Made by a program: the position numbers and the translations under genes. The notes below the pieces were generated by a model that worked only from the letters and a program-made list of their open reading frames with translations, searched no databases and was not told the DNA's origin. From Candidatus Limnocylindria bacterium (lineage in GTDB: Bacteria > Chloroflexota > Limnocylindria > P2-11E), in NCBI GenBank assembly GCA_036523395.1, contig DATDEH010000122.1, forward strand, positions 28,429 to 92,428: a stretch of DNA of 64,000 nt. The letters are read 5' to 3'. Numbering within the stretch: the stretch's first letter is position 1; each line of letters opens with the position of its first letter. Positions 1,863-62,561 of this stretch are shown piece after piece.

Positions 1863-3583
1863 CAGTCGGCTGCTTCCGTCCCCGTTCCCGCGGCCGTCGT
1901 CTTGTTGCGCCCGCGTCCACCGCGACGCCTTCCGCCGCGCGACCCGCGTCGCGTGCGCTTGCGTGGCAGGGCAGGCGTTCCGTTCGTAACTGGACCACTC
2001 GCCGGCGCCGCTAGCGCTGGCGCGGGCTCGCCCTCGTCCTGGTCGTCGGTCTCCGACGCGGCAGTAGTCACCGTCACGACGCGCTCGACAGCATCGCCGT
2101 TCAGGCCGCCAAATTCTCCGAGGACGGTACGCGCTTCCGGGTGGTCGCGTGTGACGACGAAGCCGGCCTTCTTGCCGTGGTCCTCGGGCTTCATGATCCC
2201 GCGCTCCACGGCGCTGCGGATGTTCGACTCGAGCGCGTCGCCCTCCACTCGCGACAGGAGCTCCGCGAACAATGCGGCATTGACCCAGTCCGCGCGGTCG
2301 CCGCGTGCACGTGTCGTGCTGACGAAGTTGAAGAGGTGCGCGATCGCAGCAGCCGGCTGACGTGCGTACATGACGAGCGGATGGTCATCGACGAGCCAGC
2401 ACATCGTGATCTCGCGCCCATCGCGCTGGACCGACTCGCTCTGGATCGCGCCGCGCTCCTCGGCGATGTTGAAGAGCGTCTCCAGCAGAACGCGACGCTG
2501 CGTCCGACCACGCGCGATACCGCCCGGCTGGTCCGCGCGCGAGAGCGGATCGAGGACGGCCTCGACGACCGGTACGCGCTTGGTGTCTTTCGTGACGGTG
2601 TTGATGCGACGGAGGAGGCGCACGAAGTGGAAGTAGGTCTCAGCGACGAGCGGGGAGCTGAAGTTCGGCGAGAGCAGCTGCTTCGCCTTTGCGCGCATGC
2701 GGCCCTCGAGCTTCGCCTCGATGTGGTGCTGTTCGATCGCCGCGTCGATCCTCTCCTCGAGGACGCTGGACGCTTCCTTCTCGGAGAGCGGCACGACCGA
2801 GCGGACGAAGTCGCCGCGGGCCATCGATGAGGCATGAGTCGCCACCAGCTGGTCGAGCAGGAGGACCGCGAGTCGCCGCTGTTCCTTATCGGATTCGGGC
2901 GCCGCGGTGGGAACGACGGCCGGCACGACCGGCGGCGTTGCTCGTATCGCGCGCCCTCCGCCACCGCGGCCGCTGCCGCCCCGCCGAGCGCGCGTACGCG
3001 CAGCGGCGGGCTCTTCGGGACGCCGCTCTTCCTTCCCGAACTGCGTGTCGTCGGCGCGCAGGCCTCCGCGAGTCCAGCGGGCCTCGGGTATCAGGTCCTC
3101 GAGCAGGAACACGTCGTCGCGAAGGTGCGGGGACTCACGGAGCTCGTTGGCGAGAGAAAGATCGCCCGCGACGAGATAGACCTTCTTGTCTTCGTCCTTG
3201 AGCGCCTTGCACAGGGCGTTGAGATCGCGGTCACCGGAAACGATGAACCAGACCTCGATGTCCGGACGATCCTTGTAGAGGAGCTTCATCGCGCGCGTGA
3301 TCAGGACCGCGTCGGACCGGCCTTTGAGGAGCCGGCCGCTCATGCGCTGCGCCACCGGGATCGGCTCCATGCCGGTGAACTCGAGCGCCATGAGCAGCGT
3401 CTCGTCCTGCATCGCGACCTCCTGTCCGAAGATCGCGAGCTTCACGCGGACGGGGCCGAATTCGGCGGCTTTCTTGAGGATCGCCTGCAGGATCGCGAGT
3501 GATGACGGCAGCGGTCCTGTGGTGTGCTGCCGCAGCGTGTAGTAGACGTTCTCCCAGTCAATGAGGAGAGCGACGTCGGGCAA
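1862..3583 (-). CDS. NYN-domain (PIN-like ribonuclease, LabA-type) protein with Arg/Gly-rich linkers and a ~300-aa C-terminal domain
   Basis: LLIDWENVYYT…VSGDRDLNAL…VAGD is the NYN/LabA signature. A TTG at 3583-3581 is preceded by GGAGA (3590-3594), giving a ~574-aa product. The listed 1154-aa ORF 1862..5326 is a high-GC run-through that would overlap tldD. The RG-rich tails (…RRGGSGRGGGGR…, …[15 protein letters not shown]…) flank a central helical region. Confidence 0.6.
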   Translation of the reverse strand: MPDVALLIDWENVYYTLRQHTTGPLPSSLAILQAILKKAAEFGPVRVKLAIFGQEVAMQDETLLMALEFTGMEPIPVAQRMSGRLLKGRSDAVLITRAMKLLYKDRPDIEVWFIVSGDRDLNALCKALKDEDKKVYLVAGDLSLANELRESPHLRDDVFLLEDLIPEARWTRGGLRADDTQFGKEERRPEEPAAARTRARRGGSGRGGGGRAIRATPPVVPAVVPTAAPESDKEQRRLAVLLLDQLVATHASSMARGDFVRSVVPLSEKEASSVLEERIDAAIEQHHIEAKLEGRMRAKAKQLLSPNFSSPLVAETYFHFVRLLRRINTVTKDTKRVPVVEAVLDPLSRADQPGGIARGRTQRRVLLETLFNIAEERGAIQSESVQRDGREITMCWLVDDHPLVMYARQPAAAIAHLFNFVSTTRARGDRADWVNAALFAELLSRVEGDALESNIRSAVERGIMKPEDHGKKAGFVVTRDHPEARTVLGEFGGLNGDAVERVVTVTTAASETDDQDEGEPAPALAAPASGPVTNGTPALPRKRTRRGSRGGRRRGGRGRNKTTAAGTGTEAAD

Positions 3584-21002: not shown

Positions 21003-26438
<5,436 letters not shown>

Positions 26439-28503: not shown

Positions 28504-30647
28504 CACTCTCGCGCCTTCGCGGCTTAGACCCGCAGCGGTACCTCCTCCTCGCGATCGTCCTCGCCGTCGTCCTCTTCGACGCGATCACGCTCTTTCCAGA
28601 GGTCGTCGTACCTGTGCCGAGCAACAACGACGACGCGTTCCACTTCCTCTTCGTCCAGCGCGCGTCCGACGCGCTCGCGCGCGGCGCGAACCCGCTCGAT
28701 TTCTGGACACCGCAGCTCGAGCTGGGCTTCGCGAGCTTCGTGCACTACCAGAACCTCGCACACCTCGCCGTTGTCGCGCTCCATCGCGCGCTGTTCGGCC
28801 TGGTCGACATCTTCACGCTCTTCAACCTGATCCGGTATCTGCTGCTGGTGCTCTTCCCGCTCACCGTGCTGTGGTCGCTGCTCCGCATGGGCTTCACGTT
28901 CGCTCAGGCAGCGCTCGGCGCTGCCGCGTCGTCGCTTCTCGCGACACCGTTCCTGTACGGCCTCGACTACGCCTCGTACATCTGGCGCGGGTTCGGGACG
29001 TACACGCAGCTCTGGGCGATGCACCTATCGTTCATCAGCCTCGCTGCGGCGCACACCGTGATCACGCGCGGCCGGGGTCATGTTCTGGCGATCGTCGCCC
29101 TCGCGGCTTTGGTGCTCGTGCACCTGCTCTACGCGTACATGCTCGCGATCAGCGTCGGCGTGCTGTTCGTGGTGTCGCTTCGCCGCGCGTCCTGGCGCAG
29201 CCAGGTGCTCGGCATGGGCGCCGTCGGGCTCCTTGCGCTCGTGATCACCTCGTACATGTGGCTGCCGTACCTGCAGACCGCCGCGTACCTGAACGTGAGC
29301 CCCTATCTGCAGCCGGAGAAGTACGACGGCCTCGGCGCCGGTCAGGTCCTGCGTTACCTCGTGACCGGAGAGCTGTTCGACGGCGGGCGGCTGCCGATCC
29401 TGTCGCTCTTCGTTGGCCTGGGCATCGTGAGCGTCGCGTTCCAGCGGACACGGCTCGCCATCACGGCACTCGTGCTCTTCGCGGTCTGGCTCGTCCTGTA
29501 CTTCGGCCGGCCGACGCTCGGCGGCCTCATCGATCTCCTTCCGCTGCACCAGACCCTCTTCATCCATCGCTTCAGCGGCGCGGTCCACCTCGCGGGCATC
29601 CTGCTGATCGGCCTGGGCGCCGGGTGGCTCTGGGATCTGGCGGCCAGACGATCCCGGCGACCGTGGTTGCCACTCGCACTCGTCGCGGTCGCCTTCCTCG
29701 CGCTCGTGCCGGCGATGCGGGAGCGCTACGCCTTCTACGTGCAGAACCTCGACTGGATGCAGCAGACCCGAATCGCCATCGGCTCGGACGGCGACGCGAG
29801 GTCGATCGTCGATCAGCTGCGTACGCTTCCGGCGGGCCGCGTCTTCGCGGGTCTGCGCACCGACTACGGACCCGCGATGAACTTCGCGATCCCGTTCAAT
29901 TCCGTGCGCTTCAGCGATGTGCTCACGTTCAGCGCGATCGATACGGTCTCGCCGCCGTACAACTCACTGTCACTCTCGAGCGACATGCTCTGGGACTTCG
30001 ACTACCGACGCGCTGAGGATTACGACCTCTTTAACGTGCGGTACGTCGTCGCACCGGCGACGCTGCCCGCACCGTCCTTTCTCTCGGTACTGAGAAGGAC
30101 CGCGCGATACACGCTGTATCAGGCGCCCACGAGCGGCTACGGCGAGTACGTCATGGTCACGCGCCGGCAGGCCGTCGCAACATCGGGCGACCTCGTGCGC
30201 GCGAACCGACCGTGGCTGCTCGACGCCGCTCGCTCACAGCGCGACTTCACGGAGTGGGATTACCCAGCGGTGACGACACAGGGCGACCTCCCCGTATCAG
30301 GTTGCACGGGGAGCGAAGTGTCTGAGGTCCACGTTGCCGCGGAGCGGCTCGACCTCGCTACTTCGTGTGACAGCTCAGGCACCCTGCTCATCAAGGTCAC
30401 GTACGACCCGGGCTGGCGCGTGACGGTGGACGGGTCGTCAGTCGCGACGTTCATGTTGTCGCCGGCCTACCTCGGTGCCGCGATCCCCGCCGGGACGCAC
30501 AACGTCACGGCGCAGTACATCGGCACTCCGGCCAAGATGCCGCTCTTCGTCATCGGACTCGTGGTGCTCGTGGGACTCGCGCTGGTGCCGCGTCGGAATT
30601 GGTGGGCAGCGCGATTGACGCGCACGGCGGCTCCCCCGGTCGGGTGA
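28500..30647 (+). CDS. large polytopic membrane protein, YfhO-like (putative lipid-linked-glycan transferase family) with C-terminal extracytoplasmic domain
   Basis: ≥11 TM helices in the N-terminal 400 aa and a ~250-aa soluble C-terminal domain. Total size ~700 aa. The best start is CTG 28500, which overlaps the TPR stop (CTGA). GTG 28614 is the first canonical start but would truncate the first TM helix (LLLAIVLAVVLF). Confidence 0.5.
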   Translation: MTLSRLRGLDPQRYLLLAIVLAVVLFDAITLFPEVVVPVPSNNDDAFHFLFVQRASDALARGANPLDFWTPQLELGFASFVHYQNLAHLAVVALHRALFGLVDIFTLFNLIRYLLLVLFPLTVLWSLLRMGFTFAQAALGAAASSLLATPFLYGLDYASYIWRGFGTYTQLWAMHLSFISLAAAHTVITRGRGHVLAIVALAALVLVHLLYAYMLAISVGVLFVVSLRRASWRSQVLGMGAVGLLALVITSYMWLPYLQTAAYLNVSPYLQPEKYDGLGAGQVLRYLVTGELFDGGRLPILSLFVGLGIVSVAFQRTRLAITALVLFAVWLVLYFGRPTLGGLIDLLPLHQTLFIHRFSGAVHLAGILLIGLGAGWLWDLAARRSRRPWLPLALVAVAFLALVPAMRERYAFYVQNLDWMQQTRIAIGSDGDARSIVDQLRTLPAGRVFAGLRTDYGPAMNFAIPFNSVRFSDVLTFSAIDTVSPPYNSLSLSSDMLWDFDYRRAEDYDLFNVRYVVAPATLPAPSFLSVLRRTARYTLYQAPTSGYGEYVMVTRRQAVATSGDLVRANRPWLLDAARSQRDFTEWDYPAVTTQGDLPVSGCTGSEVSEVHVAAERLDLATSCDSSGTLLIKVTYDPGWRVTVDGSSVATFMLSPAYLGAAIPAGTHNVTAQYIGTPAKMPLFVIGLVVLVGLALVPRRNWWAARLTRTAAPPVG

Positions 30648-30757
30648 GGAAGCCTGGCGGACCCTGCAGGCGCAGTGGTCCCAACAACGCGCCCGCCGGG
30701 ACTAGGTTGCCCCTCGTTCGGTCACATTCACCGACCTAGATTTGCTGCAAGCCAAGA

Positions 30758-30864
30758 CCGAGAGGTCCTGGTGACCCGAGCGAAACGGCAAACCCGTCGC
30801 GAGGCGGGGACGCAAAGCCTCCGGACTCACAGAGTTAGCGGGGTTACCGAAACGAGGATGAGCG
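30758..30864 (+). promoter_or_regulatory. conserved ~105-nt 5' leader, copy 1 (candidate cis-regulatory RNA, possibly ydaO/c-di-AMP-type riboswitch)
   Basis: cccgagcgaaacggcaaacccgtcgcgaggcggggacgcaaagcctccggactcacagagttagcggggttaccgaaacgaggatgagcgATG. It is ~80 % identical to the leader at 32151-32257. Differences cluster as would be expected for compensatory stem changes. Confidence 0.45.
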
Positions 30865-32034
30865 ATGAAGAGCCTTCTGAAGATCGCGGGCGTGGGCGCC
30901 CTCGCACTGCTGGCACTGATGTTCGTCTTCCGTGTTCAGGCCAGCGCGAACGACGGCCCCTCTTGCGCCCCGACGGCCGGTTTCGTCCCCATGTTCTGCG
31001 TCAACGTGCCGGTGGGCACGAGCGTGCGTCACGAGACCACCGTCCCTCTGTCGACGGTCCTCACGACCCGCGCCGACGTCCGCGTCGAGTCGGGTATCCC
31101 GGCTCCCGAGGTCGTGCGCCTCGCCTCCAGTGTCGACATCGCCATCAGCCGCATCGATCAGGTCTTCGATCGCTCGTTCACGGCCAAGCCGCGGATCCTC
31201 GTCTTCGCGACGCGCGTGAGCTTCGCACGTGGCACGCAGGACCTCTTCGGCTACTCGCCCGAGACAGCGGCGAACGTCGCGGCTTCATACGGTGGCGTGT
31301 TCGACCCGCAGACGCTCACCATCGCACTGAGCTGGCAGTCGACGGCGGGCTCGAATCTCCCACGTCTTCTCACTCATGAGCTGACGCACCTCGCGACGCG
31401 CGAGCTCGTCGGCACCGACGCCGTGCTGCCGGCGTGGTTCGAAGAAGGCCTCGCCGCGGAGATCGAGGCGGGCGATGCCGGCATCGACAAAGACGCGCAG
31501 CTCGCGGCGCGCTCGCTTCTCGCCAACGCTCCACGCACGCTCGACACGGTCGGCACGCTTGCCGACTGGCACCGCGAGTATGCGAAGCTCGGGACCGCCC
31601 TCTACGCCGTCTCCGCCGAGCTCGTCGGAGCGATGGAAGCGCAGATCGGTCGCGGCACGATGTTCGCCCTCCTCGCCGATGTCGGACACGGGGTGCGTTT
31701 CGAGGATGCCTACCGCGCACGAGCGGGTGAAGACCTCGCTGCGCTCCTGGCCCGCTTCACCGCCGGTGCCGCGTTCCAGCCCACGGTCACGGTGGGGACC
31801 GTCCCGGACAGCAACGGCAACCTCCGATGGACACTCACTGGATTCGCCCCCAACAGCGAAGTGCGGATCACGATCTCGGGCACGAGCTACGACCTGGGTT
31901 ACTCGCTCCACACCGACGGGATCGGGATGCACCGCGGCACCTTCGGATCGACTGCGGCACCCGGGTCTTACACCCTGACGGCGAGGAGCACGAGCTTGTA
32001 CGCGACGGGCACGATCGACACGATGTCGCGCTAG
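30865..32034 (+). CDS. secreted HExxH-motif protein (putative zinc metallopeptidase)
   Basis: Signal peptide MKSLLKIAGVGALALLALMFV. THELTHL (HExxH) with a downstream EEGLAAE. ~390 aa. Confidence 0.55.
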   Translation: MKSLLKIAGVGALALLALMFVFRVQASANDGPSCAPTAGFVPMFCVNVPVGTSVRHETTVPLSTVLTTRADVRVESGIPAPEVVRLASSVDIAISRIDQVFDRSFTAKPRILVFATRVSFARGTQDLFGYSPETAANVAASYGGVFDPQTLTIALSWQSTAGSNLPRLLTHELTHLATRELVGTDAVLPAWFEEGLAAEIEAGDAGIDKDAQLAARSLLANAPRTLDTVGTLADWHREYAKLGTALYAVSAELVGAMEAQIGRGTMFALLADVGHGVRFEDAYRARAGEDLAALLARFTAGAAFQPTVTVGTVPDSNGNLRWTLTGFAPNSEVRITISGTSYDLGYSLHTDGIGMHRGTFGSTAAPGSYTLTARSTSLYATGTIDTMSR

Positions 32035-32150
32035 CGAGCGAGCGAGCGGAGTCCCCTTCTCTCATACCTATGGGGTAGTCCCATCGGCAGCCATTCCTGG
32101 GACCTCCTCGACCCTCGCGCCGGACCTTCGCGCACCTACGATTGCATGGC

Positions 32151-32257
32151 CAGAGAACGAAGTCTGGCCCGAGCGAAATGGCAAATCCGCCGCGAGGCGG
32201 TGACGCAAAGCCACCGGACTCTTCGGGTCAGCGGGGCTCCCGAAACGAGGATGAGTA
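32151..32257 (+). promoter_or_regulatory. conserved 5' leader, copy 2 (candidate riboswitch)
   Basis: cccgagcgaaatggcaaatccgccgcgaggcggtgacgcaaagccaccggactcttcgggtcagcggggctcccgaaacgaggatgagtaATG. Confidence 0.45.
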
Positions 32258-32977
32258 ATGAGATCTGTTCTTACGGCCGCTGGCGCCGGGATGCTGATGC
32301 TCTTCAGTCTGGTCTTCGTCTCGGCCGATCAGGCCAGTGCGAATGACGGTCCCCTCTGCACCACGACCGTCGGCTTCCTACCGACGCTCTGCGTGAGCAT
32401 CCCGCTCCCCGCAATCGTGCGGCGAGATGACGCGATCCCCACGACCGTCGCGAAGGATCGGACCGTTACGGCGCCGCAGGCTGACATCGCTCCGCGAACT
32501 GTCGAGATCGAACCAGGTGCGTCCGATATCCAGAGCGAGCCTGAGCGGGCGCAACCCGAGGCCCGAGCGCTCGAACCTGTATTCGACCTCGATGACCTTC
32601 GCGCTTACGCGCGCGACGCAGCCATCAGGCAGGGAATCGACCCCGTCCTCTTCGTGCGTCAGATCGATGCGGAGTCGGCGTTCGACCCGAACGCGGTCTC
32701 GAAGGCGGGCGCCGTCGGTATCGCGCAGCTCATGCCGGCACTGCATCCCGCAGTTGACCCCACCGATCCGTACGCGTCGCTGGATTACGCCGCGCGGCTC
32801 ATGCACGTGTACATCGCGCATTTCGGGAACTGGCGTCTTGCGCTCATCGCCTACAACGCCGGCCCGGGCCGCCTCATGCCTGGGAATCCCGCGTACCTGC
32901 CGACCTCGACGCTCCTCTCGAACTCGTTCGGCGGCGGTGAGACGAAGCGCTACGTCGCGAGGGTCCTCGGCCGTTAG
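32258..32977 (+). CDS. secreted lytic transglycosylase (SLT domain)
   Basis: Signal peptide. SLT catalytic block ESAFDPNAVSKAGAVGIAQLMP…YNAGPG. Its N-terminal 50 aa are homologous to the N-terminus of 30865..32034. Confidence 0.7.
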   Translation: MRSVLTAAGAGMLMLFSLVFVSADQASANDGPLCTTTVGFLPTLCVSIPLPAIVRRDDAIPTTVAKDRTVTAPQADIAPRTVEIEPGASDIQSEPERAQPEARALEPVFDLDDLRAYARDAAIRQGIDPVLFVRQIDAESAFDPNAVSKAGAVGIAQLMPALHPAVDPTDPYASLDYAARLMHVYIAHFGNWRLALIAYNAGPGRLMPGNPAYLPTSTLLSNSFGGGETKRYVARVLGR

Positions 32978-32986
32978 CGCGAGCTG

Positions 32987-33667
32987 CTAGCGGGCGGAGT
33001 CCTTCTCGAGCATGCCGCGGTTGTGCACGAACAGCGCGGCCTGCGTCCGATCCGTGAGCTCGAGCTTGCTGAAGATGTTGGAGATGTGCGTCTTCACGGT
33101 GCGCTCGCTGATGCCGAGCTGCGCGCCGATCTCCTTGTTCGCCCGACCGCTGGCGACGAGTCGCAGCACCTCACGCTCTCGCGGCGTGAGATCCGAGTAC
33201 ACATCGGTCTCTGACGACGGTGTTCCGCTGCGCAGCTGTCCGAACTCGTCTAAGACGCGGCGCGCGACCGACGGGTAGATGAGCGAGAAGCCGTCGGCCA
33301 CGGTGCGGATCGAGTTCGTGAGCTGCGTTGCGGTGACTTCCTTTAATAGGTAACCCGACGCACCGGCCCGGATCGACGAGAACACGAGATCGTCCTCGTC
33401 GTAGTTCGTCAGCACGATGACACGGGCCGACGGGACGTAATTGCGCACCCGCCGCGTCGCGGTGACGCCGTCCCAGTCGCCCATGTTGATGTCCATCAGC
33501 ACGACGTCCGGCAGCAGCTCTTGCGCGAGCTCGAGCGCGGCGTGGCCGTCGCCCGCCTCGCCGACCACTTCGATGTCCGGCTCGGTCTCGAGGATCGTGC
33601 GGAGACCGCTCCGGACGACGGCGTGGTCGTCGACGATGAGGATCCTGATGCGGCGCTTCTCGTTCAT
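32987..33667 (-). CDS. NarL/LuxR-family response regulator
   Basis: RILIVDDH…VLMDINMGDWDG…, LuxR HTH (LTPREREVL…SERTVKTHI). The ATG overlaps the upstream kinase stop (ATGA). Confidence 0.8.
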   Translation of the reverse strand: MNEKRRIRILIVDDHAVVRSGLRTILETEPDIEVVGEAGDGHAALELAQELLPDVVLMDINMGDWDGVTATRRVRNYVPSARVIVLTNYDEDDLVFSSIRAGASGYLLKEVTATQLTNSIRTVADGFSLIYPSVARRVLDEFGQLRSGTPSSETDVYSDLTPREREVLRLVASGRANKEIGAQLGISERTVKTHISNIFSKLELTDRTQAALFVHNRGMLEKDSAR

Positions 33668-35347: not shown

Positions 35348-37657
35348 TCAGGCGATGGACGCTTCGCCCTCGATCCGGAACTCCAGTACGTTGCGGGTGC
35401 CGGACACGAGACGCAGCTGCGGCTCGGCGATCACGCGCAGCCCGCTGGCGAACTCCTCCGTCGTCATAGGAGAACGCAGCGCCACTGTCAGTGTCGCTAT
35501 GCCGCCGCGGAAGTCTCGGACGTACAGAGACCGTACGGTTGGTAGCGACTGGATACGACGCTCGACCTCCACCAGACGGGCGAACGAACGGACCGGCGAG
35601 AGCACCAGCTGAAGGTCGGTCGTCGGTGCGCCGGCCTCCACTCTCGCTGGGGGCACTTCGCGACCCTCGAGGGCTCGAAGCGGTGGCGGGACCGGCTGCT
35701 GGGCAGCGGCAGCGCGCGCTGCGGCGGCGCGACGCTCGCGCTCGGCCTGAAGCTCGGCGGCGACCTGTTCGGCTGCGGCCTGTTCTGCCATCGCGCGCTC
35801 GGCGGCGGCCCGCTCCGCGGCCGCGCGTTCCGTAGCCGCGGCGTGTTCGGCGGCTGCGCGTTCCGCCGCCGCGCGCTCCGCGGCCGCGCGTTCGGCGGCG
35901 CGCTGCGCGGCGGCGCTCTCAGCGAGCGCGCGCTCCGCCTCCGCACGTCGCTGCGCCGCGGCACGCTCGGCCTCGGCGCGCTCGTGCGCCGCGCGCTCAG
36001 CGGCGGCGTGCTCCGCGGCCGCGCGGAGCTCCTCCTGCGCGCGTCGCTCCTCGGCCGCGCGACGCTCCTCGATCGCGCGGTCCATCGCGGCGCGCTCTGC
36101 GACCGCTCGCCGTTCTTCTTCCGCCCTCCGCTCCGCCGAAGCGCGGCGTTCTACCTCGGCGCGTAGCTCGTCCGCGACGCGGCGTTCTTCGGCGGCGCGT
36201 TCTTCTTCGAGGCGTCGCTCTGTCGCTGCCTGCTCGGCTGCGGCGCGTTCCGCCGCCGCGTGCTCGGCTGCGGCTCGCTCCTCGTTCGCGCGCTGCTCCT
36301 CGTGAGCGCGTCGCTCCTCGGCGGCGATCCGCTCCTGTATCGCGCGCTCCATCGCGGCTGTCTCGGCCGCGGCGCGCTGCTCTTCTTCGGCACGACGCTC
36401 TTGCGCGAGCCGTCGCTCTTCCGCGGCGCGCTCCGTCGCCGCGCGATCCTCGGCGGCGTGCCGCTCCTCGATCTCGCGCGCTTCGGCCGCGGCGCGACGG
36501 TCTGCCGCAGCTCGTTCGGCGGCCGCGCGCTCTTCAGCGGCGCGGGCCTCTTCTGCTTCACGCTCGATGGCCGCGCGCTCCGCTGCCGCGCGCTCTTCCG
36601 AAGCACGGCGCTCTTCTTCCACGCGTCGCGCTTCTGCGGCGCGACGATCTTCAGCGGCGCGCTCTTCAGCGGCGCGCAGCTCTGTAGCGACACGCTCATC
36701 TTCGGCGCGACGCGCCTCGTCGGCTACGCGCCGCTCCTCCGCGGCACGCATCTCTGCGGCCTGCCGCGCTTCTTCGACCTGCCGCGCTTCTTCGACCTGC
36801 CGCGCTTCTTCGGCGAGTCGTTCTTCTTCGGCGCGCTCCTGCGCGGCACGCTGCTCTTCCTCGATGCGTCGCAGCTCGGCCGCAGCGAGCCGCTCTTCTT
36901 CGACGCGCCGGCCTTCCGCAGCGGCTCGTTCCTCTTCCTCGACGCGCCGAGCCTCGGCGGCTTCGTCGATAGCCGGGAAGACCTCTTCGTCCTCGAGTGT
37001 CGCGAAGACCTCGTGATCTTCGACGCGGTGCGCCTCCGCGGCAGGCCGCACGTCGTCCTCGAATGGCTGCTCGGCGATCGTCTCCGGGGCGACGACGATC
37101 TCTGGTCGAGCGACGGTCTCTGGTGCGGCGGCGACCGGCTCGTCGACCGTCGGCCAGGATTCTTCGATGCGCGGCGCGGCCGGCCGCGCGACGGGGGGAG
37201 TGGCGCGCTCGAGCGGTGGGGTCGGCGCGCGGCGGTACTCGTCGATCAGCTCTTCGAACAGACCGCGCAGCGCCTCCGATGCAGCGACGCGCATGTCGGA
37301 CGGACTGGCGTCGGCGGCGACTGGCCGACCGACAGGCGCGATCGCGCCGCGGCGCTGCTGCGCGATGTCGTCCTGGAGCTGGTCGTGCTCTTCGCGAAGC
37401 CGCTCGATCTCCTTCAGGAGCATCCGGCGTTCTTCGCGGGCCTGCTCGAGGATCTGCGAAGCCGTGGTCTCCGCCCGCTCGCGGATCTCGTACGCGGCGC
37501 GCAGGGCGCTCGCAAGCGCTTCCTGGGCGGTGGCGTCGTACTCCTCGTAAATGGCCGCTCGGCGCTGGGCGACCTCAAGATCGGCCTGGAGCTGCGTGAC
37601 GCGCTTGGCGAGCTCCGCCACCCGTGCGGACAGGGCAGCGACGATGTCGTTAGAGCT
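35348..37657 (-). CDS. DivIVA-like coiled-coil protein with ~500-aa Ala/Glu/Arg low-complexity coiled-coil and distinct C-terminal domain
   Basis: The N-terminus (VAALSARVAELAKRVTQLQADLEVAQRR…ILEQAREE) resembles a DivIVA coiled coil. Long (AAERAAAER)n-type repeats follow. The C-terminal ~100 aa are non-repetitive. GTG 37657 follows AAGG. It lies 16 nt upstream of the kinase gene. Confidence 0.5.
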   Translation of the reverse strand, partial: SSNDIVAALSARVAELAKRVTQLQADLEVAQRRAAIYEEYDATAQEALASALRAAYEIRERAETTASQILEQAREERRMLLKEIERLREEHDQLQDDIAQQRRGAIAPVGRPVAADASPSDMRVAASEALRGLFEELIDEYRRAPTPPLERATPPVARPAAPRIEESWPTVDEPVAAAPETVARPEIVVAPETIAEQPFEDDVRPAAEAHRVEDHEVFATLEDEEVFPAIDEAAEARRVEEEERAAAEGRRVEEERLAAAELRRIEEEQRAAQERAEEERLAEEARQVEEARQVEEARQAAEMRAAEERRVADEARRAEDERVATELRAAEERAAEDRRAAEARRVEEERRASEERAAAERAAIEREAEEARAAEERAAAERAAADRRAAAEAREIEERHAAEDRAATERAAEERRLAQERRAEEEQRAAAETAAMERAIQERIAAEERRAHEEQRANEERAAAEHAAAERAAAEQAATERRLEEERAAEERRVADELRAEVERRASAERRAEEERRAVAERAAMDRAIEERRAAEERRAQEELRAAAEHAAAERAAHERAEAERAAAQRRAEAERALAESAAAQRAAERAAAERAAAERAAAEHAAATERAAAERAAAERAMAEQAAAEQVAAELQAERERRAAAARAAAAQQPVPPPLRALEGREVPPARVEAGAPTTDLQLVLSPVRSFARLVEVERRIQSLPTVRSLYVRDFRGGIATLTVALRSPMTTEEFASGLRVIAEPQLRLVSGTRNVLEFRIEGEASIA

Positions 37658-37739
37658 ATTCACGCGGCCTTCGGCCAACGTGGACCGCCTTTCTTCCTCG
37701 CCTCTCCCCGCGCGAGGCCCCAGCGTACACAATTCAGCC

Positions 37740-38345
37740 GTGGCGAAGAAGGACAAGAAGGGCAAGAAGGACCCGGAGGCTCCCGTCGACCTGGCTGCGC
37801 GGATCGGCGCTCGTCCCGAGCCGCCGCCGACGGCGATCCCCGCGCAGCCTCCAAAGAAGGCAGAGCCCCCGCAGCCAGCGCGGCTCGATGCTCCGTTACC
37901 ACCGCGCCGCACCGAAGAGCGGCCGCGTGAGGAGCGTGCGCGCACGACGCCACCGGCTGCGACGCCGCCGGCGCAGGACCCAGGCTCGATGGAGTGGCCG
38001 TCGCCGATCCCGCCGCTCGACGCTCGCGTCGAGCCTGCGATCCCATCAACGCGAACGCCACCCGGACCGGGCGAGACTGATCTCGTTGTGACACCTCTCC
38101 CCACCCCTGACGACTGGCATCGGTTCGAGCTCGCGCTGCGCCGCGTTCGCGGTGTGGGGCAGCTGAAGACCGAGTACTACCGACACTCGGTGTTGAAAGT
38201 GCGCGTCAGCTACAGCGGTGCGGATCGTCTCGCGCACCTGCTTCGCGCCGGCATTCCCGGGTACCGCGTGCGCGTGATCGGCGAAGATCGAAAAACGCTC
38301 CAGATCCTCGTCGCATCGGAGTCGGACGAACGCCGACCCGGCTGA
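37740..38345 (+). CDS. hypothetical protein: Lys-rich N-terminus, Pro-rich linker, C-terminal ~80-aa domain
   Basis: GTG 37740 (VAKKDKKGKKD…). The C-terminal block LVVTPLPTPDDWHRFELALRRVRGVGQLKTEYYRHSVLKVRV… resembles the C-terminus of the divergent coiled-coil protein. Confidence 0.4.
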   Translation: MAKKDKKGKKDPEAPVDLAARIGARPEPPPTAIPAQPPKKAEPPQPARLDAPLPPRRTEERPREERARTTPPAATPPAQDPGSMEWPSPIPPLDARVEPAIPSTRTPPGPGETDLVVTPLPTPDDWHRFELALRRVRGVGQLKTEYYRHSVLKVRVSYSGADRLAHLLRAGIPGYRVRVIGEDRKTLQILVASESDERRPG

Positions 38346-51964: not shown

Positions 51965-52039
51965 GGGCCAGTAGCTCAGCGGTAGAGCAGGGGACTCTTA
52001 ATCCCTTGGTCGTGGGTTCGAATCCCTCCTGGCTCACCA
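51965..52039 (+). tRNA. tRNA-Lys (anticodon CUU)
   Basis: Hand-folded cloverleaf: acceptor GGGCCAG/CTGGCTC (one G·U), D-arm GCTC-AGCGGTA-GAGC, anticodon arm GGGGA-CTCTTAA-TCCCT, variable TGGTC, T-arm GTGGG-TTCGAAT-CCCTC (one U·U), encoded CCA. Confidence 0.8.
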
Positions 52040-53693: not shown

Positions 53694-55721
53694 TTGATGA
53701 CTAGCCTCTCATCTGTGAGCGATCTCAGTCCTCTCGGTCGGGCTCTGGCACTCCGGTCGTGGCGTGCGGCCCTCCTCGCCATCGCCGGCGCGTTCCTGGT
53801 CTTCGGACTCGAACAGCTCGCGCCGACGGGTTGGCCACGCGGCGCGCTCGCGTCGGGCGCATGGCTCGCATTCGGTCTGGGCGCGATGGTCGCCGCGGCG
53901 CGCGCGGCGGAGACCACACCGGGCCGCGACCGGCTGCCGTGGGTCTTCGTCGCGATAGCCGTCGGCGCGTGGACGGTCGGCATGATCGTGCGCAGCGCGT
54001 TCCTCGTCGCCGATGTCGCGATCCCGACGCCCGGCCTCGACGATGCCACGCACCTCGGCGCGGCCTCCCTGCTGATCCTCGGGTTCGTCGCGATGGTGCG
54101 CGGCCGGCGCCTCGCGGTCTACGCGCTGGTGCTCGACTCCGGGGCGGTGGTGCTGCTTCTTCTCGCCGCGCTCGCGCTCCTCCTCTCGAGCGCGCTCGCG
54201 AGCGAGATGAAGCAGGAACCGGTCGCCACGACGGTGATCCTTCTGTACGCGGTGTTGTGGTCCGGCGCGACGGGCGCTGCACTCTCGGCCCTCTGGGGTT
54301 CGCCGATCGAGCAGCCGCGTCGTGCCTACGCGATCCTCGCGCTCGGCATTGCGCTCAACGCGCTCGCGTTCACGCTCAGCCTGCCGACGTTCCTCTTCGG
54401 TCGATTCCAAGCCGGGACGGGCCTCGACCTGTTGTGGATGCTCGGCATGATCGCGATCGGCGCCGCGGCGGGCACCTGGATCGAGGACCGCAGGGCCGAG
54501 CCGAGGCGGCTGTTCTCTCGCGACGTGATCGAGCTCTCGCGCCTCGTTCTTCCGGCACTGACCGCCGTCCTCGCCGCCGGACTCGTTGTGGTCGCGAACC
54601 TCATCGACTCGGACGTCGAGCTGTTCATCGACTCCGCCGTCGCCGCGACCATGGTCATCCTCGCGCTGCGCGCCGGCCTGGCCCTGTTCGCGAACTGGCG
54701 CCTCAGCGAAACGGAGCGGCGCCGCGCGGTGCAGTTCGAGGCCCTCTACGAGGTCGGACTCGCGGCCGCCGGCGAGCGTTCGCTCGAGGAGCTCGCGAAG
54801 CTCGTCGTCGAGCAGGCCACGCAGCTGTCCCGCACCGACGGCGCCATGTTCGCGCTCGCGGAGCCCGGCAACGGCCTCATCATTCGCGCGCTGCGGCCGA
54901 ACCCCCAGCTCGGCCTTCGCGACTCGGTCGGGGAGCCGCTCGCCGGCATCTCGCTCGCGACGATCGCGACGCGCGACATGGTGGTCGCGCCGAAGTACGC
55001 CGAGCACCCCTCGAGCACGAAGCCACTTCACGCGACGATCGCTTCCGCCATCGCGGTCCCGCTGATCGCTCATGGCGAGCTCGTCGGCACCCTCGCGATG
55101 TACTCGGCGACGCCGCGCGAGTTCTCGAGCGACACGCAGCGCCTCGTTCGCCTGTACGCAGCACAGGCCGCTATCGCCATCGCCAACGCGCGCCTGCTGG
55201 CCGAGACACGCCGGCTCGCCCGCGACGACGACCTCACCGGCGTCATGAACCGCCGTAGCCTGATGGAGCGCCTCGACGGTGAGATGGCCGAAGCCGCTCG
55301 GCACGGCGACATCTTCGCGGTCGTGCTCTGTGACGTGGACGGCCTGAAGGCCGTGAACGACACCGCGGGTCACCTTGCCGGCAACGAGGTCCTGACAAAG
55401 GTCGCGCACCTCATGCGCGAGACGATCCGCGCCGAGGACGTCGTGGCGCGCTTCGGGGGTGACGAGTTCGTGCTGCTCCTGCCGCGCACCGGACTGCTGC
55501 CCGCGCAGGCGCTGGTGGGTCGGATCGAATCGCGCCTCCGCGAGGAGACCTATCACTGGGCCGGCCGCGATCATCCGCTGCCCAGCGTCTCGTTCGGCAT
55601 CGCGTGGTTCCCCGAGGACGGGCGCACCGACGACGCGCTGCTCGCCTGTGCCGACGAGCGCATGTACGAGGACAAGGTGCGGTCGCGAGCGCCGCGCGCT
55701 GGTGCGTCCGAGGCCGATTAG
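53694..55721 (+). CDS. membrane sensor diguanylate cyclase (multi-TM sensor – GAF – GGDEF)
   Basis: Seven or eight N-terminal TM helices, a GAF-like block, and RFGGDEF with an I-site-like RxxD (RNRRSLMERLD region). Confidence 0.8.
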   Translation: MMTSLSSVSDLSPLGRALALRSWRAALLAIAGAFLVFGLEQLAPTGWPRGALASGAWLAFGLGAMVAAARAAETTPGRDRLPWVFVAIAVGAWTVGMIVRSAFLVADVAIPTPGLDDATHLGAASLLILGFVAMVRGRRLAVYALVLDSGAVVLLLLAALALLLSSALASEMKQEPVATTVILLYAVLWSGATGAALSALWGSPIEQPRRAYAILALGIALNALAFTLSLPTFLFGRFQAGTGLDLLWMLGMIAIGAAAGTWIEDRRAEPRRLFSRDVIELSRLVLPALTAVLAAGLVVVANLIDSDVELFIDSAVAATMVILALRAGLALFANWRLSETERRRAVQFEALYEVGLAAAGERSLEELAKLVVEQATQLSRTDGAMFALAEPGNGLIIRALRPNPQLGLRDSVGEPLAGISLATIATRDMVVAPKYAEHPSSTKPLHATIASAIAVPLIAHGELVGTLAMYSATPREFSSDTQRLVRLYAAQAAIAIANARLLAETRRLARDDDLTGVMNRRSLMERLDGEMAEAARHGDIFAVVLCDVDGLKAVNDTAGHLAGNEVLTKVAHLMRETIRAEDVVARFGGDEFVLLLPRTGLLPAQALVGRIESRLREETYHWAGRDHPLPSVSFGIAWFPEDGRTDDALLACADERMYEDKVRSRAPRAGASEAD

Positions 55722-60581: not shown

Positions 60582-62561
60582 GTGTTTTCGAAGCGCCAGA
60601 GGCGTCAGCGCGCCGTCGTCGCCGGGCTTGCGGCGCTCGCGGTGCTGTTCGGCGCTTTCGCGCTCCTGACGGAGGCCTTCGACACCACGCTCCAGACCGC
60701 CGTCTACGACAAGGCGATCGAGATCTCGCCCGCCCAGGTGAAGAACCAGATGACGATCGTCGCGGTCGACGACCTCACCATCGCGAAGTACGACGTCTAC
60801 CCGCTGCCACGTCGTGCGTACGCCGATCTCATCCGTGCCCTTCGAGCGCAGAACCCGACGGTGATCGCGATGGACGTCAGCTTCTACGACCGCTCGCCGA
60901 GCCCCGAGGACGACGCGCTTCTCGCGTCGGCGATCAAGGACGCCGGCAACGTGATCCTCGCGATGCAGGGCGCAGGCGATGGCGTCCTCACCGATCACTC
61001 GACGAAGTTCGCGCTCGTGCAGCTCCCGATCGCGCAGCTGAGCGCGGCGGCAGCCGGGCTCGGCTCGGTGAACGTCACAGCCGATCCTGACGGACACGTT
61101 CGCGACGCGCAGATGCGCATCGAGGGGCCTGACGGAAAGACGTACTACGCCCTGCCGCTCGTCGCCGCGGCTCGCCAGGTGCGCGCGGACCTCAGCAAGG
61201 CAAAGCTCTCCGGTGACCGGCTCGTCGTGCCCGCTCCGCTCGGCGAACGGGTGCTTCCGCTCAACGAGCGCGGCGGGATGGCCGTGTACTACGCCGCGAA
61301 GCCCGCGACGTCCACCAGCGAGCAGCAGTCGCTGGGCTTCTGCAAGACGTCGGGCGAGTTCTGCGTCGTGTCGATGAAGGACGTCATCGCGGGCGCGGTC
61401 CCGCGCGAGCTGATCCTCGGCCGCACGGTGTTCGTGGGCTTCCACTCCGTGTCGGCTGTGCCGGACGACTATCCGGTCCCGAACAGCGTCGGGCGCAAGA
61501 TGTTCGGCGTCGAGATCTGGGCGAACACAGCGCAGTCGATCTTCACCAACCGGTATCCCGTACTGAAGCAGGGCTTCTTCACGACGCTCGCGCAGCTCCT
61601 CATCCTGACCCTGGTCGGCATGCTCCTCGTGGTGCGCTGGCGCCTGTGGGGCTTCCTTACGGCGCTGGGCGTGCTCCTCGCGTACATCGCCGGCGCCTAC
61701 GTGCTGTTCACGCTCCAGACGCAGGGCGACATCGGCAACGGGCCGGTCGAAGTCCCGTCGATGGGCTACGTCATCCCGGCCGCGTTCTGGTGGGTCATCG
61801 CCCTGGGTTACCTGCTCTTTGAGGAGCAACTCGCCCTGTCGCGAACGCAGAACACATTCGGGCGGTTCGTCACGCCAGCGGTCGCGCGAACGATCATGGA
61901 CCGCGAAGAGACCGGCCAGCTCGCCCTGGGTGGGGAGGATCGGCGCGTGACGGTGCTCTTCGGCGACATCCGCGGCTTCACTGCGATCTCGGAGGGAATG
62001 ACCCCGGGGATCCTTCTGGGCCACCTCAACCGCTACTTCGACGGTATGGTGAACATCGTGAACCGCTATGAGGGGACCGTGAACAAGTACAACGGTGACA
62101 ACATCATGGTCATCTGGGGCGCCCCGATCGAGGTCGCCGACGAGGCGCGCAAGGCGGTCGAGTGCGCGCTCGAGATGCAGAAGTGGATCCAAGCGGAGCG
62201 TGCGAAGGGCGGGCCTGACGTGTCATTCGGCTTCGGCATCAACACCGGGCACGTCGTCGCAGGGTTTCTCGGCGCGATGGGCCGAATGGAGTACACGGTC
62301 ATCGGCGACACCGCGAACGTCGCATCGCGCCTCACCTCGGCGGACATCGCCCGCCGCGATCAGGTCGCATGCAGCGCCGAGACGCTCAGCGAGCTCGGGA
62401 GCGATGTCGATTACGTCGACCTCGGCGCGATCCTGGTGAAAGGTCGCGCGGAGCCGGTCGCGTGCTACCAGATCGACCGCATCGGTGCGCTCGCGAACCC
62501 CAACGCTGCACCTGCGCCGCAGATCAGGGTCGGCGCCGCGGCCGTGGCCGGATTCCATTGA
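60582..62561 (+). CDS. CHASE2-sensor class III adenylate/guanylate cyclase
   Basis: N-terminal TM plus a periplasmic CHASE2-like region, three TM helices, and a cyclase catalytic block (VTVLFGDIRGFT…YNGDNIMVIWGAP…GINTGHVVAG). Confidence 0.75.
   Translation: MFSKRQRRQRAVVAGLAALAVLFGAFALLTEAFDTTLQTAVYDKAIEISPAQVKNQMTIVAVDDLTIAKYDVYPLPRRAYADLIRALRAQNPTVIAMDVSFYDRSPSPEDDALLASAIKDAGNVILAMQGAGDGVLTDHSTKFALVQLPIAQLSAAAAGLGSVNVTADPDGHVRDAQMRIEGPDGKTYYALPLVAAARQVRADLSKAKLSGDRLVVPAPLGERVLPLNERGGMAVYYAAKPATSTSEQQSLGFCKTSGEFCVVSMKDVIAGAVPRELILGRTVFVGFHSVSAVPDDYPVPNSVGRKMFGVEIWANTAQSIFTNRYPVLKQGFFTTLAQLLILTLVGMLLVVRWRLWGFLTALGVLLAYIAGAYVLFTLQTQGDIGNGPVEVPSMGYVIPAAFWWVIALGYLLFEEQLALSRTQNTFGRFVTPAVARTIMDREETGQLALGGEDRRVTVLFGDIRGFTAISEGMTPGILLGHLNRYFDGMVNIVNRYEGTVNKYNGDNIMVIWGAPIEVADEARKAVECALEMQKWIQAERAKGGPDVSFGFGINTGHVVAGFLGAMGRMEYTVIGDTANVASRLTSADIARRDQVACSAETLSELGSDVDYVDLGAILVKGRAEPVACYQIDRIGALANPNAAPAPQIRVGAAAVAGFH

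Follow-up and report, generated by a model that had tools for sequence, protein, structure and literature searches.

Duplicated leaders ahead of a secreted peptidase gene and a lytic transglycosylase gene in Limnocylindria: probable class I c-di-GMP riboswitches

Two similar leaders in a 64,000-nucleotide stretch of DNA (the window) from a Candidatus Limnocylindria metagenome-assembled genome (Chloroflexota), an uncultured soil bacterium, are, judged from their sequence, very likely class I c-di-GMP riboswitches (c-di-GMP-I, GEMM-I). The explanation that best covers the whole locus, to which we assign a probability of about 80%, is a pair of c-di-GMP-I aptamers in which the 3' strand of P1 runs into the Shine-Dalgarno sequence (SD), acting as translational OFF switches and belonging to a duplicated unit. 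The first-pass annotation had proposed ydaO-type c-di-AMP riboswitches. It recognised the kind of element, i.e., cyclic-dinucleotide aptamers within the 5' UTRs of the genes for two secreted enzymes of cell-wall type, but not the class: both copies match RF01051 and neither matches RF00379. The features are:

30775..30782, + strand: copy 1, P1 5' strand; CG core 30781-30782, proposed extension CCCG 30775-30778
30777..30851, + strand: copy 1 (type A), probable c-di-GMP-I aptamer; RF01051, 65.5 bits, E=1.4e-10
30793-30808, + strand: copy 1, P2 with GCGA tetraloop
30816-30845, + strand: copy 1, P3, from the family-consensus alignment
30848..30858, + strand: copy 1, P1 3' strand and SD; CG 30848-30849, AAA, then CGAGGA with the SD GAGGA at 30854-30858
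30865..32034, + strand: gene 1, secreted HExxH zinc peptidase, 389 aa; Pfam Peptidase_MA_2, 37.4 bits
32170..32244, + strand: copy 2 (type B), probable c-di-GMP-I aptamer; RF01051, 60.9 bits, E=1.9e-09; U.U at the base of P2 (32186/32201)
32241..32251, + strand: copy 2, P1 3' strand and SD; GAGGA 32247-32251, ATG 32258
32258..32977, + strand: gene 2, secreted SLT lytic transglycosylase, 239 aa; Pfam SLT, 65.2 bits

The presence of two similar leaders is borne out by direct comparison. Aligned without gaps at an offset of 1393 (30773-30864 versus 32166-32257), they are identical at 77/92 positions (83.7%), and the Rfam aptamer portions at 63/75 (84%). A blastn search within the window returns copy 2 as the only significant match to copy 1 (88 nt, 86.4%, E=7e-18). 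Every one of the conserved cores reported earlier, CCCGAGCGAAA, GACGCAAAGCC, CCGGACTC, GCGGGG and CCGAAACGAGGATGAG, was found. The similarity had been described as about 105 nt long and ending at the SD/ATG. The repeat itself stands, but it does not stop at the ATG and instead runs into the signal peptide and an ANDGPxC...GFxPxxCV motif. Residues 1-50 of the two proteins are 54% identical (tblastn E=2e-15), and the DNA of codons 25-50 is 72% identical.

Contrary to the statement that the leaders are unrelated further upstream, both copies carry an inverted repeat, GTCCC(A)...(T)GGGAC, and a -10-like box, TAGATT or TACGAT, at equal spacing:

30678..30702, + strand: copy 1, inverted repeat, GTCCC 30678-30682 ... 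GGGAC 30698-30702; operator-like, putative function
30737..30742, + strand: copy 1, putative -10-like box TAGATT; ccTAgATT in A-type loci
32078..32103, + strand: copy 2, inverted repeat, GTCCCA 32078-32083 ... TGGGAC 32098-32103
32137..32142, + strand: copy 2, putative -10-like box TACGAT; cT-ACcATT in B-type loci, spaced from the inverted repeat as in copy 1

The inverted repeat of copy 1 reaches 90% conservation or more across 35 A-type upstream regions and is kept in orthologues without the riboswitch, and that of copy 2 is conserved in 15 B-type upstream regions. Scanning with a strict sigma-70 consensus gave no full promoter, so the -10-like boxes are recognised solely by their conservation; a putative transcription start of copy 1 lies near 30749. 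The duplicated unit is larger than the reported leader. Besides the riboswitch it includes the inverted repeat and the -10-like box upstream of it, as well as the signal peptide and a two-cysteine motif at the N-terminus.

Both aptamers match the RF01051 model over its full length (1-87) and exceed its gathering score of 35 bits by 26-30 bits. Positions are numbered below after Vc2 of Vibrio cholerae, the structural reference of RF01051, using what we take to be the Vc2 sequence. In the family-consensus alignment, the equivalent of G20 is a G at 30787 and 32180 (G in 44/44 relatives), that of A47 an A at 30814 and 32207 (46/46), and that of C92 a C at 30847 and 32240 (45/46). The partners of the interhelical pair, C44 in the GAC junction (30811/32204) and G83 in the AG bulge of P3 (30838/32231), are invariant in 46/46, as read at the sequence level only. 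The ligand-contact roles of G20, A47 and C92 and the C44-G83 pair have been described (PMC4744006). The proposed structure has standard pairs in 97.1% of cells, compared with 27-42% when the partners are slid. The RF01051 scores, the three contacts, the interhelical partners and the pairing fit together support the class.

Each aptamer is 75 nt long, with two hairpins and a P1 core of CG/CG. The two-hairpin organisation, the core GGCAAAC...GACGCAAAGCCUCCGG...AGCGGGGUUACCGA, the three contacts and the interhelical pair are shared with Vc2. However, P3 is truncated to 12 pairs closed by a 3-nt loop; a stretch of 16-18 nt in the family model is reduced to 4-6 nt here. The tetraloop on P2 is GCGA (GNRA), not GAAA, and the usual tetraloop-receptor region is absent from the short P3; docking of a P2 tetraloop into a P3 receptor is seen in many GEMM-I members, and members without the receptor exist. 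Further differences from Vc2 are a junction before G20 that is shorter by one nucleotide, the position of the SD directly behind P1, and the Chloroflexota host.

Folding energies are -9.8 to -11.3 kcal/mol for P2 and -11.4 to -14.2 kcal/mol for P3, and the contribution of P1 with its extension is only some -1 to -3 kcal/mol. Unconstrained minimum free energy folds of the leaders are no better than shuffles (z = 0.01 and -0.67) and give non-aptamer structures. The alternative helices in these folds, e.g., GGUGACCC with GGGUUACC in copy 1, were set aside because relatives do not conserve them. The substitutions between the copies had been read as paired, as in maintained helices, and this does not hold, as there are no compensatory double changes. 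Going from copy 1 to copy 2, one U->A change falls in a bulge, two U->C changes convert G.U to G-C, and the C-G pair at the base of P2 becomes U.U. The family members are too similar for a test of covariation to be informative: only one double change is seen in 26 pairs, and the shuffle control is not exceeded. More distant SLT loci add extra variants, and their P1 and SD sequences are identical.

The comparison set consists of 46 distinct related leaders, in which the aptamer and the SD tail are nearly invariant and two fixed lineages, A (peptidase) and B (SLT), can be distinguished. The strong conservation extends over a clade of Limnocylindria. Type B comprises 12 distinct sequences, in which its diagnostic positions are fixed. 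Its basal P2 pair is a U.U mismatch, and in P3 two G.U pairs are replaced by G-C. In L090, L092 and L095, SLT leaders that form a related clade, the G20 contact is a C.

The class assignment has to be weighed against three other readings. To a pair of ydaO-type c-di-AMP riboswitches we give almost no credence. Elements of the ydaO type precede cell-wall hydrolases such as rpfA and NlpC/P60 enzymes in Actinobacteria, and their fold is larger, pseudo-symmetric and multi-helix. The gene context here is analogous, and the ACCCGUC and CGCAAAG strings cited as ydaO features are present, but within GEMM-I they correspond to the P2 stem and the GACGCAAAG junction. The host is a member of the Chloroflexota, not a high-GC Gram-positive. 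Covariance-model searches with Rfam under permissive filters returned nothing for RF00379 (ydaO-yuaA) in 30600-32400 or 30740-30880, even at E<=10, and the whole window has no RF00379 match that reaches the gathering score. RF01051 was matched instead, the 75-nt two-hairpin element fitting it end to end. The likeness to ydaO-yuaA is one of function only, a cyclic-dinucleotide switch before secreted cell-wall hydrolases; sequence and structure are unmatched, and ligand, size and fold differ.

A GEMM-I specificity variant with another ligand, either the GGC variant RF03167 (c-di-GMP-I-GGC) or the 3'3'-cGAMP-sensing GEMM-Ib, is very improbable. Under looser filters copy 1 was assigned to RF03167, at 59.0 bits, exactly the gathering score of that family (59), and the U.U mismatch of copy 2 adjoins the junction; the family reported for copy 2 is RF01051. 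RF03167 is indeed very close in sequence and shares the P1 topology of a CG pair, an A-rich internal loop and a further pair. However, the sole position that marks its consensus (GACGC-G-AA, within GACGCGAA) is a G at the A47 position, where both copies and 46/46 relatives have A; the copies read GACGCAAAG and the match line is blank there. They are therefore not members of RF03167, and its score is explained by the shared G+C-rich stems. GEMM-Ib needs A at position 20, which is G in both copies (for the role of G20 in GEMM-I see PMC6140456 and PMC4744006). There is equally little chance that the leaders are a duplicated promoter or leader fragment, or a decaying relic without present sensing. 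Promoter-like sequence is included in the duplication, relatives show clean losses of the whole leader or of the aptamer alone, one relative has a degenerate copy (L036:143-245), and C. difficile is reported to have class I copies that do not function (PMC6366702). Against this, both copies score far above the RF01051 threshold, and the aptamer core is nearly invariant in the 46 distinct sequences of both lineages, while the adjacent peptidases are 69-90% identical and the flanking leader columns vary freely.

Given class I c-di-GMP aptamers, the expression platform is probably translational, as the SD abuts P1 and no terminator-like site separates the aptamer from the ATG in either copy. In each, the SD starts 4 nt past the end of P1 and of the aptamer, and the aptamer ends 14 nt before the ATG. 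The SD was correctly placed inside the conserved 3' tail in both copies by the first-pass annotation. Among the 46 leaders, CCGAAACGAGG and CCGAGCGAAA are nearly invariant and the flanking columns vary; in alignment A5, columns 12-18 are nearly invariant and columns 1-11 variable. The extension of P1 pairs as C-G at 13-101 (44/45), as G-C at 14-100 (44/45) and as C-G or U-G at 12-103 (45/45), while column 11 pairs with G104 in just 27/45 sequences. The putative extension is compatible with these data.

With a slight preference, we infer that c-di-GMP switches the leaders OFF, the SD being drawn into an extension of P1. P2 and P3 would be stable by themselves, and binding of c-di-GMP would close the marginal P1 (CG/CG). 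Past an internal loop of purines, the closed P1 could then be prolonged by G-C, C-G and Y-G pairs that involve the CGAGG of the SD. Such pairing would lower ribosome access, and at high c-di-GMP both peptidase and transglycosylase would have their translation switched OFF. In the predictions, the SD pairs with the 5' extension solely in the aptamer-enforced state, and enforcing the aptamer reduces SD accessibility in 40/48 leaders, although the effect is small (means 0.42->0.33 and 0.35->0.30).

The same aptamers could instead work as translational ON switches, with the SD held in the absence of ligand by CCUC of the P3 5' strand, or by CUUCU in codons 4-5, and freed upon binding. This appears unlikely. 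CCUCC is found in the P3 5' strand of 43/46 leaders, the SD is often paired with early coding sequence in unconstrained ensembles, and class I ON switches are known, e.g., Bc2 of B. thuringiensis (cited in PMC6366702). However, CCUC-GAGG pairing must open P3, at a cost of about 9-13 kcal/mol compared with P2 and P3, and three leaders, including copy 2 of the window, have CCACC without a compensating change in the SD. Anti-SD pairing by the P3 5' strand was therefore rejected as energetically unfavourable and uncompensated. The coding-region partners of the SD differ between types A and B and lie in protein-constrained codons, and the enforced aptamer lowers predicted accessibility where an ON switch would raise it. 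For the preferred OFF direction there is a parallel in Clostridioides difficile, where a class I riboswitch likewise precedes the gene of a secreted zinc metalloprotease, zmpI (PPEP-1), which is repressed by c-di-GMP (PMC6366702). That OFF switch acts by transcription termination, in contrast to the probably translational control at the leaders described here, and its peptidase and that of gene 1 belong to unrelated families.

Gene 1 begins with a signal peptide and an ANDGPSC...FCV motif (codons 1-50, 30865-31014), followed by a gluzincin-like catalytic domain, with HELTH at residue 171 and EEG 24 residues further on; a beta-sandwich makes up the C-terminal part. Its AlphaFold model (pLDDT 77.7) matches M1 aminopeptidases, LTA4 hydrolase and M9 collagenase in Foldseek. 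A PDB sequence search with the peptidase was empty, and NCBIfam gave only a far sub-threshold match to flagellinolysin. Gene 2, which adjoins the gene of a NarL-type regulator (32987-33667), starts with the same signal peptide and two-cysteine module (32258-32407), and alignment with fused relatives shows that its linker is homologous to the linker of fused peptidase-SLT proteins. The SLT domains of fused and standalone proteins form separate clades. The relatives with fused genes, the locus architectures, the fused-type linker and the separate clades point to an old tandem duplication of the whole unit, from the operator-like repeat and the -10 box through the riboswitch, signal peptide and two-cysteine motif to the enzyme, followed by domain loss. 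This would explain why both genes share a regulatory and export front end.

It can be speculated, with considerable doubt, that the duplicated unit is a self-contained regulated-secretion cassette reused for different catalytic domains, that the A and B aptamers perhaps have different c-di-GMP thresholds, and that the clade with C at position 20 is possibly an undescribed specificity or affinity variant. If the thresholds differ, the peptidase and the transglycosylase would switch at different ligand levels.

For the riboswitch class itself the leaders are an ordinary further example of a known regulator, and knowledge of the class is unchanged. What changes is the ligand assignment, from c-di-AMP to c-di-GMP, which would place a secreted zinc peptidase and a lytic transglycosylase of abundant uncultured soil Chloroflexota (Limnocylindria) under RNA-level c-di-GMP control. 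For Chloroflexota or Limnocylindria, our literature search turned up no paper that deals with c-di-GMP riboswitches. The leaders also offer a natural GEMM-I that is compact and whose platform is unusually simple, the SD lying directly behind P1. In addition, the A and B lineages, the clean riboswitch losses and the fused and split enzyme genes are material on the duplication and decay of riboswitch-gene units.

The window also encodes a plausible source of the ligand:

53694..55721, + strand: GAF-GGDEF diguanylate cyclase (predicted), intact GGDEF motif and RxxD I-site; Pfam GGDEF, 133 bits

In the MshEN-like region of a neighbouring giant protein, a regular-expression search did not find the published c-di-GMP-binding motif. 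The riboswitch-gene pair adjoins a conserved two-component system.

The Rfam scan of the entire window at gathering thresholds gave three matches in all:

30777-30851, c-di-GMP-I riboswitch (RF01051), 65.5 bits, gathering score 35
32170-32244, c-di-GMP-I riboswitch (RF01051), 60.9 bits, gathering score 35
51965-52036, plus strand, tRNA gene, 70.1 bits

Copy 1, before gene 1 (30865-32034), and copy 2, before gene 2 (32258-32977), both align to the RF01051 model from end to end. The first-pass annotation had read this pair as ydaO-type riboswitches sensing c-di-AMP. It was correct about the kind of element and wrong about class and ligand: ydaO-yuaA gave no match in a permissive scan (E<=10) of 30600-32400 or in a scan of 30740-30880 alone, and the ydaO class is therefore refuted. 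With permissive filters, copy 1 is also assigned to the variant family c-di-GMP-I-GGC (RF03167) at 59.0 bits, exactly the gathering score. The consensus sequences of RF03167 and RF01051 are one junction position apart (GACGCGAA versus GACGCAAA). As both copies carry GACGCAAAG at this diagnostic junction, membership in RF03167 was rejected despite the score of copy 1, and the pair falls into canonical c-di-GMP-I.

Alignment to the consensus places the ligand-contact positions at G 30787/32180, A 30814/32207 and C 30847/32240, and the partners of the interhelical pair at C 30811/32204 and G 30838/32231. The Vc2 numbering used here is consistent with where C44, A47 and G83 fall. What G20, A47 and C92 do has been described, as has the interhelical pair, which is universally conserved (PMC4744006). 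Because of the Rfam scores and these signature nucleotides, with covariation being neutral, the pair is, judged by sequence, one of genuine canonical c-di-GMP-I riboswitches, picked up by Rfam's standard model without lowering its default threshold. This is a known riboswitch class and a new instance in a little-studied phylum; it is mildly notable that the duplication is modular, that the A and B lineages are fixed, that the platform, with the Shine-Dalgarno sequence (SD) in P1, is simple, and that a related clade carries C at the G20 contact.

Two similar leaders are present where the first-pass annotation had placed them, and the sequence reads as it described. When 30680-31060 is aligned pairwise to 32073-32453, the high identity forms a single block from about 30772/32165 up to the start codons. 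Ungapped, at an offset of 1393, the identities are:

5' flank, aptamer and SD: 77/92 identical (83.7%)
Rfam aptamer: 63/75 identical (84%)
codons 1-24: 51%
codons 25-50: 72%
past codon 50: 33%

Copy 2 is the sole significant blastn match of copy 1 in the 64-kb window (88 nt, 86.4%, E=7e-18). The repeat is real, and chance is ruled out. Its extent had, however, been drawn too short, as the homology runs into both proteins (tblastn E=2e-15), whose N-termini consist of a signal peptide followed by the motif QASANDGPxCxxTxGFxPxxCVxxP.

Gene 1 encodes a secreted HExxH...E peptidase (Pfam Peptidase_MA_2) and gene 2 an SLT lytic transglycosylase. In the structure model of gene 1 the catalytic domain is gluzincin-like and a beta-sandwich forms the C-terminal part; the nearest structural matches are to M1 aminopeptidases, LTA4 hydrolase and an M9 collagenase. 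The common N-terminal module (30865-31014 and 32258-32407), a signal peptide ending in ASA and then NDGPxC-x10-C, contains two invariant cysteines and is predicted to be disordered (pLDDT <50, residues 1-59). It is also found in 47-50% identical peptidase paralogues without the riboswitch (L041-L052, L074-L077).

The aptamer is compact. A GCGA tetraloop closes P2, which has six pairs in copy 1 and, in copy 2, five plus a U.U mismatch. P3 consists of 12 pairs, a one-nucleotide bulge, an AG bulge and a 3-nt loop; in one stretch it has 4-6 nt against 16-18 in the RF01051 family model. In the CG/CG core of P1, 30781-30782 are paired with 30848-30849. The SD, GAGGA, begins 4 nt past P1, and the ATG lies 6 nt past the SD. 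No terminator-like site was found between aptamer and ATG, and no promoter by a strict sigma-70 scan.

We favour a translational OFF switch, with a probability of roughly 0.55. P2 and P3 are each stable alone (-9.8 to -14.2 kcal/mol), while the P1 core plus extension contributes just -1 to -3 kcal/mol or so, in keeping with a helix that closes only with ligand. The proposed extension (G30778-C30853, C30777-G30854 and C30776-G30856) would form across an AG/AAA internal loop, and its pairs are kept in 44/45, 44/45 and, as C-G or U-G, 45/45 sequences, the next pair in only 27/45. The P1 annotated in the RF03167 model has this layout too: a CG pair, then an A-rich internal loop, then another pair. 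In folding predictions, pairing between the SD and the 5' extension is confined to the state in which the aptamer is forced closed, and predicted SD accessibility then goes down in 40 of 48 leaders, although the effect is small. A translational ON switch, with the SD held in the ligand-free state, is unlikely: the obvious anti-SD, CCUC in the 5' strand of P3, needs P3 to be opened at a cost of ~9-13 kcal/mol, and it is broken without compensation in three leaders, copy 2 included. A repressing class I riboswitch is known from zmpI of C. difficile, which encodes a secreted zinc metalloprotease (PMC6366702). That switch works by transcription termination (PMC6366702), while the leaders in the window have no terminator and their SD abuts P1.

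A covariance model (R1), trained on copy 1, copy 2 and one relative, recovered 59 leaders (46 distinct) from 90 sources. The related loci come from soil metagenomes and Chloroflexota/Limnocylindria MAGs, and a 'Candidatus Limnocylindria bacterium' MAG encodes a protein with 100% identity to the gene 1 peptidase. Columns 13-104 (CCGAGCGAAA through CCGAAACGAGG) are almost invariant, with free variation in the 11 columns preceding and the 9 following this block. The adjacent peptidases are only 69-90% identical, so the invariance of the aptamer block argues for purifying selection on the leader RNA. There are two fixed leader lineages, type A before the peptidase and type B, marked by U22, U29, C33, U44, C91, C93 and a UUC loop, before the SLT gene; the duplication is thus old and not a recent copy. 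The proposed structure has standard pairs in 97.1% of cells, versus 27-42% with slid partners. With only one double change among 26 pairs, covariation speaks neither for nor against it.

The related loci have the following architectures:

split, type A with a 389-aa peptidase, then type B with an about 254-aa SLT protein: the window and at least 13 loci
fused, type A with a 548-aa peptidase-SLT protein: L001:6001-7647 and L028:941-2587 (fused genes)
fused, plus separate type B and SLT: L033:1332-2978 (fused gene)
fused, plus SLT without aptamer: L093:698-2344 (fused gene) and L094
reversed order, first element degenerate: L036
SLT alone: L091

Peptidase-SLT fusions of 537-554 aa occur in many relatives (proteins P0036, P0037, P0084 and others), and L033 and L093 each have, besides the fusion, an SLT gene of its own. 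The standalone SLT protein retains the signal peptide, the two-cysteine module and a linker homologous to that of the fused protein, and the SLT domains of fused and standalone proteins form separate clades. The simplest reading is a tandem duplication of the entire unit of riboswitch and fused gene, after which copy two would have shed its peptidase domain and, in the lineage of the window, copy one its SLT domain.

Several relatives carry altered leaders:

L090:2376-2456, L092:1792-1871 and L095:174-276, leaders of a more distant group of SLT paralogues (271-281 aa, about 53% identical)
L036:143-245, degenerate leader derivative before an SLT gene, itself upstream of a peptidase

The three paralogue leaders keep the GEMM-I fold; of those scanned against Rfam, L090 (51.9 bits) and L092 (48.3 bits) pass RF01051, and L095 comes from the R1 search alone. 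At the G20 ligand contact all three read C, not G (AAAAC-GC-AAAC), and their loop is GCCA where others have GCGA. To our knowledge, no C20 variant has been described. A tmRNA gene (L090:3415-3711, minus strand) adjoins the SLT gene in L090. In the L036 derivative the G20 position is absent and U stands in place of C92; no Rfam family matches it at E<=0.01. The whole leader is cleanly lost in L022, L027, L030 and L031 (upstream of position 3001), where the upstream conserved block is still present; the ATG lies ~10 nt past a -10-like box, which suggests a near-leaderless mRNA. Only the aptamer is lost in L093:2330-2510, L097:270-430 and L098:330-460, again cleanly, with CCGAGCGAGG left behind, the product that a deletion between the direct CGA repeats on its two sides would give.

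Two elements precede both leaders:

30678-30702 and 32078-32103, conserved inverted repeat GTCCC(A)-N14-16-(T)GGGAC
30737-30742 and 32137-32142, -10-like boxes, ~35 nt downstream of the inverted repeat

The inverted repeat may serve as the operator of a dimeric regulator, one candidate being the NarL-type response regulator encoded next to it (32987-33667, minus strand). It is retained in orthologues without the riboswitch. Right after the stop codon (30647) of the YfhO-like gene lies a conserved strong hairpin, GGACC-CUGC-AGGC-GCAG-U-GGUCC (30655-30682), terminator-like without a U tail; the inverted repeat and this hairpin overlap at the left arm of the repeat. From the peptidase stop codon onward (32032-32050) there is a short run of (GCGA)n, TAGCGAGCGAGCGAGCGG, which is conserved as AGCGAGCAAGCGAGCGGA upstream of type B leaders.

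Upstream of the pair are genes for a YfhO-like membrane protein, a TPR protein and an 1800-aa REC/FecR/collagen-repeat protein; downstream, on the opposite strand, are the NarL-type response regulator and a GAF-HisKA_3 kinase. The gene order around the pair is conserved in L001 and L091. The 918-aa ORF beside the histidine kinase (35348-38104, minus strand) has no Pfam or NCBIfam match, and in L001 a 760-aa gene without a recorded Pfam hit lies at the equivalent position. Three genes of the window have the following make-up:

21036-26438, plus strand, 1800-aa protein with a receiver domain, MshEN/T2SSE_N-like region, FecR and long collagen triple-helix repeats
53694-55721, plus strand, GAF-GGDEF diguanylate cyclase with intact GGDEF motif and RxxD I-site
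60582-62561, plus strand, CHASE2-adenylate/guanylate cyclase

A simple pattern search of the MshEN-like region in the 1800-aa protein did not find the published c-di-GMP-binding motif; L001 has a giant protein with no Pfam hit on record at the matching upstream position. Since the GGDEF motif is intact, c-di-GMP is plausibly made by the predicted cyclase at 53694-55721. This gene and the one at 60582-62561 place two nucleotide second-messenger enzymes in one window.
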